Below are positions 4,185 through 9,102 of a stretch of DNA of 10,152 nucleotides, piece by piece. How positions within the stretch are numbered: the first letter of the stretch is position 1; every line of letters starts with the position of its first letter. Origin of the DNA: a virus (Duplodnaviria; Heunggongvirae; Uroviricota; Caudoviricetes); IMG/VR virus record IMGVR_UViG_2534681939_000019; one strand, 5' to 3'. The notes under the pieces were generated by a model. That model was not told the origin of the DNA. It saw only the letters and a program-made list of their open reading frames with translations, and made no database searches. Both the position numbers and the translations under genes were made by a program.

Positions 4185-4225
4185 TTTCTTTCCTCTGGTG
4201 ACAAGCTATATGGCGAGGATTTTAC

Positions 4226-4768
4226 ATGGCTGTGCTTCGTACGTTACCGGGCAGAATCAAAACTCTGAACACCCGGCGGATAAATGTCCTGAGGGGGGAA
4301 CAGCGTCGTGTCAGTGGCAGTGCCCGGGTTTCCCTCAAACGTCGTATCTGGCGGAGGGATGCCGGACACTGTTGTCTCTGTAGACGCGTGGTTGACCTTC
4401 GTGACAGTGAACTCGATCACCGCATTGCACTTCAGTTCGGTGGTGGTAATGAGGAGACGAACCTCTGGACCCTCTGTACTGAATGCCATCGCCAGAAGTC
4501 AGCGAGTGAAGCGGCGAGTGGTATGCCTGATCCGACGTTGCCTGAGCTTCCTGATGGCACGCTCAGGGCCGACGGAATCACTCGGCCTGTGACCACGACC
4601 CGGGGGGGGATCATCCGGCGAAAAAAAACGATCGCCCTGGACACCGCGCCCCCTCTCACGCAGAGAAAAAATTCCCGTTTCAGGGCAGTTAACATGTTAA
4701 CTGGCTGCCCGGGCATTTTTGCGGTTTTTATCTTTATTATTCAGTTTGTTGTGCGGAAAAAATGTTAA
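4226..4768 (+). CDS. HNH endonuclease (terminase-associated, HK97 gp74-like) with an unusually long C-terminal tail
   Basis: HNH motif HCCLCRRVVDLRDSELDHRIALQFGGGNEETNLWTLCTECHRQK; SD GAGGA 7 nt before ATG 4226; directly upstream of terS. The last 60-80 codons run through G8 and A8 homopolymers and into the palindrome array, so the true stop is uncertain. Confidence 0.75.
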   Translation: MAVLRTLPGRIKTLNTRRINVLRGEQRRVSGSARVSLKRRIWRRDAGHCCLCRRVVDLRDSELDHRIALQFGGGNEETNLWTLCTECHRQKSASEAASGMPDPTLPELPDGTLRADGITRPVTTTRGGIIRRKKTIALDTAPPLTQRKNSRFRAVNMLTGCPGIFAVFIFIIQFVVRKKC

Positions 4769-4814
4769 CAGGCTTTTTCAGCAAATGTTAACCAGGCAGC
4801 AGTTAACATTTGCG
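4683..4814. repeat. Array of GTTAAC-containing inverted repeats between HNH and terS; candidate cos / terminase recognition region
   Basis: Perfect 18-bp palindrome CAGTTAACATGTTAACTG at 4686-4703; AATGTTAACA at 4761-4770; 12-bp inverted arms GCAAATGTTAAC (4781-4792) and GTTAACATTTGC (4802-4813) around a 9-bp spacer. Five copies of ATGTTAAC-like half-sites lie within about 130 bp. Confidence 0.55.
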
Positions 4815-4883
4815 GCATGAGACGCCGGGAAAAATGGGCTGAACCATACCCGGCTGAGTGCGTTCTGGACCCGGGAGGAGGCT

Positions 4884-5447
4884 GTGCTGACAACGCAAAA
4901 ACGAAAATTTGCGCTGGCGCTCATGTCCGGGAAAAACAAAACAGCGTCAGCCATTGCCGCCGGTTATTCGGCGAAGACCGCCAGGGTTAAAGGCTCGCAG
5001 CTGGCAAAAGATCCTGAGGTGCTTGCGTTTATAGCCCGTAAACAATGCGAGACGGTGGAGGTGGATGAGGTTCCTGTTTACCGGCAGAAAAAATCAGAGC
5101 AGGAGGATAAACCCCGTCGCCGTGAGGCGGCTGCAATACCACAGCCGGACGAAAACAATCTGGAGATGCCACCGTCCGCGGTGATGTCTCCTGGTATTGA
5201 ATATATGGAGGATGGTCTTCCCGATCCGGTGAAAGCCATGGGGCGGATCCTGGTGGAAAACCTCTGCATTGATCCGAAACTGGCACTGGATGCGGCCTGG
5301 CGTCTGGCGCAGTTCACGCACCATAAAAAAGGGGATACCGGGAAAAAATCGGCAAAAGGTGATGCCGCGAAAAAAGCGGCTAACCGTTTTGCGGTGCCAC
5401 CGCCACCCCGACTGGTGGTGAATAACGATAATGAGGGCAACGGATGA
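4884..5447 (+). CDS. terS: Terminase small subunit (Terminase_2-like, N-terminal HTH)
   Basis: MLTTQKRKFALALMSGKNKTASAIAAGYSAKTARVKGSQLAKDPEVLAFI fits the TerS HTH pattern (AGYS.KTA...GS.L). GTG 4884 follows GGGAGGAGG (4873-4881); an in-frame ATG at 4833 is an alternative start without a good SD. Stop overlaps the terL start (ATGA at 5444-5447). Confidence 0.8.
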   Translation: MLTTQKRKFALALMSGKNKTASAIAAGYSAKTARVKGSQLAKDPEVLAFIARKQCETVEVDEVPVYRQKKSEQEDKPRRREAAAIPQPDENNLEMPPSAVMSPGIEYMEDGLPDPVKAMGRILVENLCIDPKLALDAAWRLAQFTHHKKGDTGKKSAKGDAAKKAANRFAVPPPPRLVVNNDNEGNG

Positions 5448-7105
5448 TACCTGTATGGAGCACAGCCTGCCCGGACTGGGCAGAGCGCCTGAAAAAGGGG
5501 CTGTCGATTATTCCGGATCCGATTTATCCGGACGAGGCCGCACATGCCCTGGCGATTTTTAAACAACTGCGGATTGTGGATGCACCTGGTAGCCCTACGT
5601 TCGGGGAGTCCTGTGCACCGTGGGTGTTTGACCTGGTGGCGGCCCTGTTTGGCTCCTACGATGCGCAGACCGGTGTACGCCATATCAAGGAAGTTTTTAT
5701 CCTTATCCCCAAGAAAAACAGCAAGTCCACGCTGGCCGCGGGGATCATGATGACTGCACTGTTACTGAACTGGCGGCAGGCGGCGGGTTACACGATTCTG
5801 GCCCCGACTGTGGAGGTGGCGGCCAACGCCTTCAACCCTGCCCGGGATATGGTACGACGGGACGATGATCTGGATGACCTCTGCCAGGTACAGACCCATA
5901 TCCGGACCATCACCCACCGGGTGACGGACACCACCCTGAAGGTGGTGGCAGCCGATCCGAATACGGTGTCCGGTATCAAGTCCGTGGGTACGCTGATTGA
6001 TGAGTTGTGGCTGTTTGGCAAGCAGTGCAAGGCGGAGGACATGTTACGTGAAGCCATAGGCGGCCTTGCCTCCCGCCCGGAAGGGTTTGTGGTGTATACG
6101 ACCACCCAGTCGAATGAACCGCCCGCCGGGGTGTTCAGACAGAAACTGCAGTACGCCCGGGATGTGCGCGACGGCAAAATTCATGATCCGCACTTTCTGC
6201 CGGTGATATTTGAACACCCTCCTGAAATGGTGGAAAGCGGGGCTAACCTGCTGATGGAAAACCTCGCCATGGTCAATCCGAATCTCGGCTATTCAGTGGA
6301 TGAGGCCTTTCTGTACCGGGAGTACCGTAAAGCCCGGGAAGCCGGTGAAGAGACATTCCGGGGGTTCATGTCAAAACACGCCAATGTGGAAATTGGTCTT
6401 GCCCTGCGCTCTGACCGCTGGGCGGGGGCTGATTTCTGGGAAGAGCAGGGCCGTTGTATCAGCCTGGACGATATCCTGCGTCGTGCTGATGTGGTGACGG
6501 TGGGGATTGACGGCGGAGGGCTGGATGATCTGCTGGGGATGTATGTGATTGGGCGTGACCGGGAGACCCGCGAATGGCTGGGCTGGGGCCATGCCTGGGC
6601 GCATGGAACCGCGGTGGTCAGACGGAAGAGTGAGGCATCCCGTTTTCAGGATTTTGTGGCCTGTGGAGACATGACGATTGTCCGTCGGGTCGGGGATGAC
6701 ACGGCGGAAGTGGCGGAATATGTGCGTCGCATTCATGAGGCTGAGTTACTGGACCATATCGGTATTGACCCGTCAGGTGTGGGGCAGATTCTGGATTCAC
6801 TGGCGGAAGCCGGGATCCCCGACGGAATTGTTGTGGGGATAAGCCAGGGCTGGAAGCTGGGCGGGGCCATTAAAACCACCGAGCGCAAACTGGCTGAGGG
6901 AGTACTGGTGCATGGTGGTCAGCCACTGATGGCCTGGTGCGTTGGCAATGCCCGGGTGGAGCCTAAAGGTAACGCTATCCTTATTACCAAACAGGCCAGC
7001 GGACGGGGGAAAATTGACCCGCTGATGGCGCTCTTCAATGCGGTCTCCCTGATGTCCCTTAACCCGGAACCGAAAAAGAAAGAATATGCGGTTTTTTTCA
7101 TATAA
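5444..7105 (+). CDS. terL: Terminase large subunit (ATPase plus nuclease)
   Basis: 553-aa ORF; P-loop-like LIPKKNSKST near the N-terminus, acidic patches in the ATPase region, C-terminal nuclease region with VTVGIDGGG and DPSG. Translationally coupled to terS. Confidence 0.9.
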   Translation: MIPVWSTACPDWAERLKKGLSIIPDPIYPDEAAHALAIFKQLRIVDAPGSPTFGESCAPWVFDLVAALFGSYDAQTGVRHIKEVFILIPKKNSKSTLAAGIMMTALLLNWRQAAGYTILAPTVEVAANAFNPARDMVRRDDDLDDLCQVQTHIRTITHRVTDTTLKVVAADPNTVSGIKSVGTLIDELWLFGKQCKAEDMLREAIGGLASRPEGFVVYTTTQSNEPPAGVFRQKLQYARDVRDGKIHDPHFLPVIFEHPPEMVESGANLLMENLAMVNPNLGYSVDEAFLYREYRKAREAGEETFRGFMSKHANVEIGLALRSDRWAGADFWEEQGRCISLDDILRRADVVTVGIDGGGLDDLLGMYVIGRDRETREWLGWGHAWAHGTAVVRRKSEASRFQDFVACGDMTIVRRVGDDTAEVAEYVRRIHEAELLDHIGIDPSGVGQILDSLAEAGIPDGIVVGISQGWKLGGAIKTTERKLAEGVLVHGGQPLMAWCVGNARVEPKGNAILITKQASGRGKIDPLMALFNAVSLMSLNPEPKKKEYAVFFI

Positions 7106-7167: not shown

Positions 7168-7746
7168 GTGACTCTTAAACGGGCCTGTTCCCTGCTGACG
7201 GTGAAATCCTTCAGCGAGGATGAACGGGTGATCACCGGGATTGCGTCAACGCCTTCTCCGGATCGGGATGGTGACATCCTGGAGCCGGAGGGGGCGGAGT
7301 TTGGCTGTGCGATCCCGTTTCTCTGGCAGCATGACTATTCCCGTCCGGTGGGCCAGTGTACGGTACGCCGGGTCAGTGAAGGTCTGGAAATCACGGCAAC
7401 ACTGGTGAAGCCCGTACCGGATATGCCGTCGCAACTGGCTGCCCGGCTGGATGAGGCCTGGGCGGCCATTAAGACCGGGCTGGTCAGGGGGCTGTCCGTG
7501 GGCTTCCGTCCCCATGAATACACCTCTCTGGACGGAGGCGGACTGCATTTTCTGCGCTGGGAACTGATGGAGGTGTCTGCCGTCACCGTGCCCGCGAATG
7601 CGGAATGCACCATCCGGACCATTAAATCTTACGACCGCCCGTTTTCTGCCGCGTCCGGCAACCGGAAACCGGTGGTGAAAATCGCATCTTCTGCCGGCGC
7701 TGCGGCACAGTCAACAACCGCTTTTCATAAGGAAAAGACAGAATGA
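7168..7746 (+). CDS. HK97-family prohead protease (peptidase S78/U35)
   Basis: GTG 7168 with AGGAGG 5 nt upstream; VITGIASTPSPDRDGDILEPEG ... FLWQHD ... GLSVGFRPHEY ... MEVSAVTVPANAECTI is the typical motif order of the HK97 protease family. Confidence 0.85.
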   Translation: MTLKRACSLLTVKSFSEDERVITGIASTPSPDRDGDILEPEGAEFGCAIPFLWQHDYSRPVGQCTVRRVSEGLEITATLVKPVPDMPSQLAARLDEAWAAIKTGLVRGLSVGFRPHEYTSLDGGGLHFLRWELMEVSAVTVPANAECTIRTIKSYDRPFSAASGNRKPVVKIASSAGAAAQSTTAFHKEKTE

Positions 7747-7812
7747 ATATTGGCGAACAGATAAAAGTTTTGAAACAAGCGTGCGGCGCTGGCAGCCTCC
7801 CTTGAGGAGGTC

Positions 7813-9102
7813 ATGACCAAAGCCGCAGAGGAAGGGCGCACGCTGGATGTGGAGGAGGAAGAGCATTACGACAACACCGCAGCGGAAATCCGTCAGGTGG
7901 ATGCGCACCTGAAGCGCCTGCGTGAACTGGAAGCCGGTAAGGCCGCCACGGCGCAGCCGGTGAAACAGGCCGGTAACGGGAATGTGGCCGCGGTGGCTTC
8001 TGCGCCGGTGATCCGTGTGGAGCAGAAACTGGATAAGGGGATTGGCTTCGCCCGCTTTGCCAAATCGCTGGCTGCGGCTAAAGGCGTCCGATCTGAAGCC
8101 CTGGAAGTGGCCCGTCGTCAGTATCCGGATGACAGTCGTCTGCATCATGTCCTGAAATCGGCAGTGGGCGCAGGGACCACCACGGATCCACAGTGGGCAG
8201 GCAGCCTGTCTGAATATCAGGAATACGCACAGGACTTTATTGATTACCTGCGTCCGCAGACCATTATCGGGCGATTTGGTCAGGGCGGGATCCCTGCACT
8301 TCGTCAGGTGCCATTCAATATCCGCGTGCACGCCCAGGTGTCCGGCGGTGCTGCCGGCTGGGTGGGGGAGGGTAAGGCAAAACCCCTGACGAAGTTTGAT
8401 TTTGAATCCATCACCTTCAGTCATGCGAAGGTGTCGGCCATTGCGGTACTGACGGAAGAACTGATCCGCTTTTCCAGTCCGGCAGCTGATGCACTGGTCC
8501 GTAATGCGCTGGCAGAAGCGGTGGTGGCGCGTCTGGACACAGACTTTGTGGACCCGAAAAAAGCTGCAGTGGCAGATGTCTCCCCGGCGTCCATCACCCA
8601 TGATGTGAAGGGCACGGCATCAACCGGTAACCCGGATGCGGATGCCGAGGCCGCGTTTGGCCAGTTTGTGACGGCAAATCTGCAGCCCACCGGTGCTGTC
8701 TGGCTGATGTCCAGCACCAATGCCCTGGCACTGTCCATGCGTAAAAATGCGCTGGGTCAGAAGGAATATCCGGACATGACCCTGCTGGGCGGGATCTTTC
8801 AGGGGCTTCCGGTGATTGTCTCCCAGTATGTGGGTGACCAGCTGGTGCTGGTGAATGCCCCGGATATTTATCTGGCGGATGACGGCGGCGTGGCAGTGGA
8901 TATGTCCCGCGAAGCATCACTGGAAATGCAGTCTGAGCCGACCGGCGACAGTACCACGCCGTCCCCGGTGGAGCTGGTTTCCATGTTCCAGACAGGCAGC
9001 GTGGCCATCCGTGCGGAGCGCTGGATCAACTGGCGTCGTCGCCGTACTGCGGCGGTGGCGGTGATCACCGGAGTGAACTACGGCAGTGCGTCCGGCGGCT
9101 GA
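7813..9102 (+). CDS. HK97-fold major capsid protein; the true N-terminus probably starts at ATG 7743 in another frame (apparent frameshift)
   Basis: 429-aa ORF with a coiled-coil-like N-terminal delta region (EIRQVDAHLKRLRELEAG) and Gly/Ala-rich capsid body, placed directly after the protease. ATG 7743 overlaps the protease stop (ATGA) and encodes MNIGEQIKVLKQ before a frame change near 7773-7776. Confidence 0.85.
   Translation: MTKAAEEGRTLDVEEEEHYDNTAAEIRQVDAHLKRLRELEAGKAATAQPVKQAGNGNVAAVASAPVIRVEQKLDKGIGFARFAKSLAAAKGVRSEALEVARRQYPDDSRLHHVLKSAVGAGTTTDPQWAGSLSEYQEYAQDFIDYLRPQTIIGRFGQGGIPALRQVPFNIRVHAQVSGGAAGWVGEGKAKPLTKFDFESITFSHAKVSAIAVLTEELIRFSSPAADALVRNALAEAVVARLDTDFVDPKKAAVADVSPASITHDVKGTASTGNPDADAEAAFGQFVTANLQPTGAVWLMSSTNALALSMRKNALGQKEYPDMTLLGGIFQGLPVIVSQYVGDQLVLVNAPDIYLADDGGVAVDMSREASLEMQSEPTGDSTTPSPVELVSMFQTGSVAIRAERWINWRRRRTAAVAVITGVNYGSASGG

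Follow-up and report, generated by a model that had tools for sequence, protein, structure and literature searches.

A candidate cos region with a GTTAAC site array between the HNH and small terminase genes of an O157-type Pankowvirus prophage

The window, by which we mean the whole stretch of 10,152 nucleotides that was analysed (IMG/VR record IMGVR_UViG_2534681939_000019), belonged to a lambdoid prophage of the E. coli O157 type, genus Pankowvirus. Its 4200-5500 segment was 97.5% identical to the Stx1 phage YYZ-2008 (50 kb) and 99.7% identical to an O157:H7 chromosome, and many Stx1a, Stx2a and Stx2c converting phages were among its relatives. Of 5426 complete E. coli genomes, 1283 had a match to the packaging module, with as many as 8 copies in a single genome. 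The genes followed the order lysis genes, HNH, terS (Terminase_2), terL (HK97 type), a protease-capsid fusion and portal. The features discussed below were the following.

4226-4592, plus strand: HNH endonuclease gene (Pfam HNH match), its extent taken from relatives; the RefSeq relative encodes a 121-aa HNH protein with its TGA at window positions 4590-4592.
4602-4609, plus strand: G-run, the left landmark of the putative cos region, lying 45 nt to the left of where the cut is predicted and shared by HK97, Bcep176 and all relatives.
4630-4677, plus strand: conserved cos core GATCGCCCTGGACACCGCGCCCCCTCTCACGCAGAGAAAAAATTCCCG, common to 163 distinct loci with any TerS type.
4645-4654, no strand: predicted 10-nt cohesive end CGCGCCCCCT, with nicks predicted at 4644/4645 and 4654/4655 purely by homology.
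4686-4703, no strand: proximal GTTAAC dyad CAGTTAACATGTTAACTG, the candidate primary site for the TerS helix-turn-helix, whose offset from the predicted left end is +32 to +49.
4704-4759, no strand: spacer rich in A and T (28-40% GC), containing T-tracts, that separates the proximal dyad from the distal sites; diversity 0.02.
4760-4771, plus strand: distal site D1, AAATGTTAACAG, with TGTTAACA at 4763-4770 as a perfect 8-bp palindrome.
4781-4813, no strand: distal sites D2 and D3, forming the inverted repeat GCAAATGTTAAC / GTTAACATTTGC with a 9-nt spacer; octamers invariant.
4814-4883, plus strand: leader ending in the terS ribosome-binding site GGGAGGAGG (4873-4881), with the lowest diversity in the region (0.004, 61 haplotypes).
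4884-5447, plus strand: terS, encoding a Terminase_2 small terminase whose N-terminal domain is a helix-turn-helix (Pfam PF03592 over residues 2-57).
5444-7105, plus strand: terL, large terminase of HK97 type (Pfam TerL_ATPase and TerL_nuclease matches).

The terS gene begins GTG CTG ACA (MLT...). Its product gave weak matches to the DNA-binding domain of SF6 TerS and was 55% identical to TerS of the Salmonella phage FSL SP-016. TerL was 84% identical to that of SP-016, about 58% identical to that of the Burkholderia phage Bcep176 and 23% identical to HK97 gp2 (E = 2e-11), and the HNH proteins of SP-016 and the window were 63% identical. On the evidence of Pfam, RefSeq and the TerL match, the interval under study therefore had the position of an HK97-type cos, between an HNH gene and the terS and terL genes of the HK97 TerL family. 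An annotated "putative secreted protein" of phage 2851 was rejected as a separate gene in this interval, being just the HNH gene.

The preliminary description had placed a cluster of palindromes between HNH and terS. Formally, a 1-nt insertion near 4583 lets the HNH reading frame of the window continue through the first palindrome as far as 4768. However, HNH stops at 4590-4592 in near-identical relatives, and the cluster is therefore truly intergenic. This insertion was one of 23 scattered single-nucleotide or small indels that separate the window from a 98.3%-identical O157:H7 prophage (at 4583, 4596, 4602, 7650-7662, 7742-7773 and others). The indels also leave the protease-major capsid fusion gene, which encodes 641 aa in the relative, broken into two frames at 7168-7746 and 7813-9102. 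Such scatter points to low-quality sequence or a decaying prophage.

A repeat search confirmed CAGTTAACATGTTAACTG as a perfect 18-bp palindrome. A direct repeat, AAATGTTAAC, had copies at 4760-4769 and 4783-4792, and the arms of the 12-bp inverted repeat (4781-4792 and 4802-4813) lay 9 nt apart. GTTAAC occurred nine times in the window against 1.63 expected, a count reached by none of 200 shuffles, and five of the nine copies fell in 4688-4807. The exact octamer ATGTTAAC was confined to the cluster, with all five copies of the 10-kb window within 122 bp (4688-4809). The same five sites were the only copies in the entire genome of YYZ-2008. Thus, the palindrome, the additional half-sites, two of them paired in an inverted repeat, and the excess of GTTAAC that had been described at this locus were all borne out. 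The repeat unit was longer than 8 bp, roughly GCCAGTTAACAT or TGTTAACA, and its TGTTAACA core was a palindrome in its own right. Counted from the end of the ...AGAAAA stretch at 4669, the GTTAAC copies lay at +18, +26, +94, +117 and +132. The resulting spacings of 8, 68, 23 and 15 bp were without helical periodicity.

Palindromes in this position might form RNA or DNA hairpins, for instance an intrinsic terminator or attenuator between HNH and terS. The sequence after the dyad is T-rich, and the distal inverted repeat had a fold z-score of -3.8. However, a scan for intrinsic terminators found no terminator-like sites, and the RNA fold of 4670-4740 was no better than that of shuffled sequence (z-score -1.1). 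The T-runs did not adjoin a stem, and in relatives the motif lies inside the coding start of terS. We consider a hairpin function extremely improbable.

Among 61 E. coli haplotypes all five octamers showed zero variation, as did the proximal dyad as a whole, and next to the D1 octamer only the adjoining base 4770 (A/T) was variable. Third-codon-position diversity was 0.066-0.09 in these haplotypes, compared with 0-0.03 across 4640-4883. However, the whole of 4640-4883 was nearly invariant, and its most conserved stretch was the 70-bp leader, which has no GTTAAC motif. Conservation within E. coli therefore does not single out the octamers. Since these haplotypes cannot separate the motifs from their flanks, distant relatives were needed.

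Length variation was seen left of the predicted cut, where the G-run (G7 to G11) and an A-run (4621-4628) differed among otherwise near-identical prophages. Some E. coli genomes gave only partial matches to the region. These were rejected as divergent variants, since they proved to be insertions of ISCro1, IS1 or ISEc20, located at about 4790 (locus L231), about 4829 (L232) and about 4605 (PPompW prophages). The insertions presumably disable packaging of the prophages that carry them.

To collect relatives, genome contigs were scanned once with a TerS alignment and viral contigs twice with patterns of the core, which together gave 163 distinct loci. These loci are not phylogenetically independent. 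They came from Enterobacterales, Pseudomonas, Burkholderia and others. All had the same arrangement of a G-run, about 30 nt and then GGACACCGCGCCCCCTCTCACGCACAGAAAAAATTCCC, and this core persisted even in phages without any GTTAAC.

The position of the cut was predicted from the record ends of two phages. The Bcep176 record has the same 10 nt, CGCACGTTCC, at its start and its end, and this duplicated 10-mer represents the cohesive end. In HK97 the record closes with ...GACCGCCGCCAAA, its last 10 nt being CGCCGCCAAA, and opens with GTTTG. In a gap-free alignment anchored on the G-run, window positions 4645-4654 fell in the same columns as the 10-mer of Bcep176 and the final 10 nt of HK97. The predicted left end therefore begins at 4655 (CTCACGCAGAG), which puts the GTTAAC dyad at +32 to +49. 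Homology in register with known or terminal cohesive ends, a mark of an HK97-type cos, was thus found outside the 4683-4814 segment highlighted by the preliminary description. Judged from this homology, the DNA is probably cut about 35 bases left of the palindromes, leaving a 10-nt cohesive end at 4645-4654. The comparison with HK97-like cos regions that had been proposed thus upheld the HNH-terS interval as the location of cos and moved the cut away from the palindromes.

The contig ends in IMG/VR showed no pile-up at the predicted cut; a single locus, L117, starts nearby, 4 nt to the left. No records of close-family phages were found that begin or end at the cos region. The end of the phi330 record was rejected as a cos end because that record is merely linearised at terL, and the starts of the vB_Pae_CF53a and vB_PR2a records were rejected because they look arbitrary. 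In the literature we found no paper mapping cos, genome ends or TerS sites for this phage family.

The two-fold symmetry of the 18-bp palindrome or the 12-bp inverted repeat, together with a location between HNH and terS, had suggested a symmetric nicking site, equivalent to cosN and cut by TerL with HNH. However, the ends of Bcep176 and HK97 align 32 bp left of the palindrome, and the core around 4645-4654 is kept in phages entirely lacking GTTAAC. Moreover, GTTAAC followed the N-terminal domain of TerS, and not TerL or HNH, across the loci described below. Nicking at the palindromes is therefore very unlikely.

The relation between the motif and TerS was clearest in SP-016. Its HNH-terS gap is 106 bp, aligns to window positions 4599-4701 and ends in GTAAACATGTTAACAG, in which the ATG is the terS start. 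In most of the 163 loci terS begins in this way, directly after the core, as ATG TTA ACA. It follows that the ancestral start of terS corresponds to the window ATG at 4694. When loci were selected by the core only, 117 of 120 distinct loci had GTTAAC at +15 to +35, compared with a background of 0.0055 per locus. The same TerS N-domain was present at 155 loci. The exact GTTAAC was found in 138 of these (+15 to +35) and the variant TGTTAAT-N4-5-TTTAACA, at the same offset, in the other 17.

The remaining eight loci (L161, L198, L205, L237, L238, L267, L272 and L282) had a different TerS N-terminus. None of them had GTTAAC. In its place, just right of the core, each type carried its own repeat pair, namely GTTTGATT..AATCAAAC, TTCAAAT twice, or AATCAGCAAATGG twice. 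The two loci that were checked, L205 and L161, encoded a TerL 57-60% identical to that of the window and an HNH homologue. Their TerS N-terminus was rich in Lys, Arg and Pro and lacked a helix-turn-helix, and only that domain had been replaced. Together, the eight loci are a natural domain-and-site swap series. The motif, or its one-off variant, thus co-varied with the DNA-binding domain of TerS (155/155 against 0/8 loci with another N-terminus). Because of this co-variation and the fixed offset from the core, the proximal dyad is best read as a cosB-like recognition site for TerS. The dimeric TerS-binding site raised in the preliminary description is very probably right to the extent that the cluster includes a TerS recognition element, the distal half-sites being less certain.

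The motif could also be regarded as having no function as a DNA site, with the proximal copy a relic of the old terS start, retained in relatives solely because AT-rich early codons serve translation initiation, and the distal copies decaying duplicates of that junction. Indeed, ATGTTAAC equals the ancestral start ATG TTA AC, every forward copy opens a short ORF starting MLT, and the distal sites occur in one lineage only. In favour of a DNA site, codon use at the start of terS showed nucleotide-level constraint. Leucine codon 2 was TTA in all 109 loci in which the motif overlaps terS, compared with 6 of 735 leucine codons elsewhere in terS, and the single GC-rich Pseudomonas phage examined likewise had TTA at codon 2. 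The offset held whether the motif overlapped the start codon or was non-coding. In lineages with a remote terS start (+49 to +61 or +138 to +141), non-coding GTTAAC copies were kept at +19 to +32, sitting at +19/+20 and +31/+32 and often with a third site added. Retention of non-coding copies at this offset was seen in at least five independent arrangements. Loss of the motif coincided exactly with replacement of the TerS DNA-binding domain, the 61 haplotypes had no octamer substitutions, and no duplication extended beyond site-like matches of about 15 nt. We therefore regard a relic without site function as unlikely.

A regulatory role was also considered, in which the sites would be operators controlling terS and terL, bound by a late-gene regulator, the HNH protein or a host nucleoid protein, possibly with autoregulation by TerS. 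Palindromic octamers are typical of dimeric regulators, and most relatives have the site lying over the start of terS and its ribosome-binding region. There was also a weak promoter-like match on the minus strand (4791-4762), but it merely reflects the sequence of the motif itself. Packaging is indicated instead by the constant distance that the motif keeps from the cleavage core and by the way it varies together with the N-domain of TerS. HNH and TerL remain homologous where the motif is lost, and the IHF consensus WATCAANNNNTTR had no match within 4593-4883. An operator function is quite unlikely.

The distal half-sites (4762-4809) had a narrower distribution than the proximal dyad. All three lie in a segment of about 190 bp that was found only in the E. 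coli lineage and that separates the old terS start codon from the present GTG start at 4884. The D3 and proximal sites share an extended match, CAGG..GCAGTTAACAT. No tandem duplication of the core was seen that could have produced the insert, and internal matches reached only about 15 nt, the size of a site. The distal sites fit the extended site consensus and resemble the arrays of other lineages with a remote terS start, in which arrays of at least three sites recur. On this sequence evidence they are probably additional TerS sites, though less certainly so than the proximal dyad, since their restriction to the E. coli lineage leaves their role less firmly supported.

One of the other arrays belonged to Pantoea/Erwinia-type loci (L130, L176 and L103). 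Here GTTAACCC, GTTAACCC, GTAAACCC and GGTAACC were spaced 9-13 bp apart at +19 to +60, between the cos core and an ATG CTG ACA terS start. This array looks like an independent expansion of the GTTAAC motif.

A mini-ORF opens at the ancestral terS start of the window (4694-4768). It has 24 codons, encodes the hydrophobic peptide MLTGCPGIFAVFIFIIQFVVRKKC and consists mostly of spacer. It was rejected as a selected gene: of its seven polymorphic sites, four, among them the two common ones, were third codon positions, a suggestive pattern that did not reach significance (binomial, about 0.17). The spacer itself may be intrinsically bendable.

We suggest, with moderate confidence, that the HNH-terS interval (approximately 4593-4883) is a two-part cos region of an HK97-type packaging module. 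The first part would be the cleavage core, comprising the G-run and the conserved block, where TerL, aided by the HNH protein, would make staggered nicks to leave a 10-nt 3′ cohesive end. The second part would be a cosB-like recognition array right of the cut, on the end that would enter the capsid first. The array has the form expected of such an element, a short motif that recurs between the predicted cut and terS, is over-represented and is unique to this part of the genome. Its near-palindromic TGTTAACA-type octamers would be bound by the N-terminal helix-turn-helix domains of oligomeric TerS. TerS binding would then position TerL on the core and set the direction of packaging towards terS and terL. 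In this scheme the proximal dyad would be the ancestral, universally conserved site, and the three sites added in E. coli Pankowvirus behind the T-tract spacer would probably provide cooperative TerS contacts, in the manner of the R sites of lambda cosB.

More tentatively, HK97-type cos sites may be modular, with a near-universal core read by TerL and HNH and a swappable repeat cassette that co-evolves with the TerS N-domain. The cassette might have been expanded in O157 Pankowvirus to an array like lambda cosB, of five sites and an intrinsically bent spacer, stranding the old terS start as the 24-codon mini-ORF. Up to 8 prophage copies residing in one genome have this array in identical form, and it may therefore give them a common packaging address, through which one intact terminase could mobilise defective Stx and effector prophages. 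This extended reading is possible rather than likely.

Cross-packaging among O157 prophages with identical cos sites has been proposed (PMC2669165). Knowing the cos cut and the TerS motif would predict which defective prophages a co-resident terminase can package, and would help to orient and finish assemblies of these phages. The rule that a TGTTAACA-type site follows the conserved core 18-33 bp downstream applies to many HK97-type phages of Proteobacteria. The swap series is, in addition, a natural data set on how small terminases of the Terminase_2 type read DNA.

The closest characterised system is HK97, which has a 10-nt 3′ overhang and in which cleavage is stimulated by the HNH protein gp74 (PMC11331095). 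The only cos-TerS complex solved for a module of this type is that of HK97, in which TerS occupies a single non-palindromic 15-bp site at +15 to +29, made up of a G and then an A-tract (PMC11331095). HK97 and the window have in common a cos located between the HNH and terS genes, a homologous TerL, and a G-run and cut register that align without gaps. A 10-nt 3′ overhang, known in HK97, is predicted in the window, and in both the TerS site, a candidate in the window, lies a few tens of bp right of the cut. However, the two TerS proteins are unrelated in sequence, and the single HK97 site contrasts with five near-palindromic octamers, from +32, in the window.

Bcep176 is closer in its recognition elements. 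Its TerS is 38% identical and its TerL about 58% identical to those of the window, it has the same core, CTCACGCGCAGAAAA, and a TGTTAAT..TTTAACA dyad lies at the same offset, over the terS start. Unlike the window, it has a single dyad, with terS starting right after it, and its motif is one base off GTTAAC. The G1P proteins of SPP1 and SF6 share with the window a TerS of Pfam PF03592 with an N-terminal helix-turn-helix, and G1P recognises several short repeated boxes at the pac site. These phages differ in their headful (pac) packaging, Gram-positive hosts, lack of an HNH partner and lack of similarity in site sequence.

In lambda, cosB has the order R3-I1-R2-R1, with sites bound by gpNu1 and an IHF site in the spacer; the overhang is 12 nt and 5′, the TerS is of Nu1 type and there is no HNH partner. 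The window resembles this arrangement in that several repeats, candidates for TerS binding, lie in mixed orientation to the terS side of the predicted nick. In lambda the spacer between proximal and distal sites is bendable, and that of the window may be similar. In contrast to lambda, the window has no IHF consensus between its repeats, its TerS belongs to Terminase_2 and not to the Nu1 type, and the predicted overhang is 3′ and not 5′. By analogy, the recognition array would work like lambda cosB without being a member of the lambda cosB family. Most likely, the window contains an unexceptional site of a known kind that had not been described before, in which the GTTAAC palindromes would mark where TerS grips the DNA.
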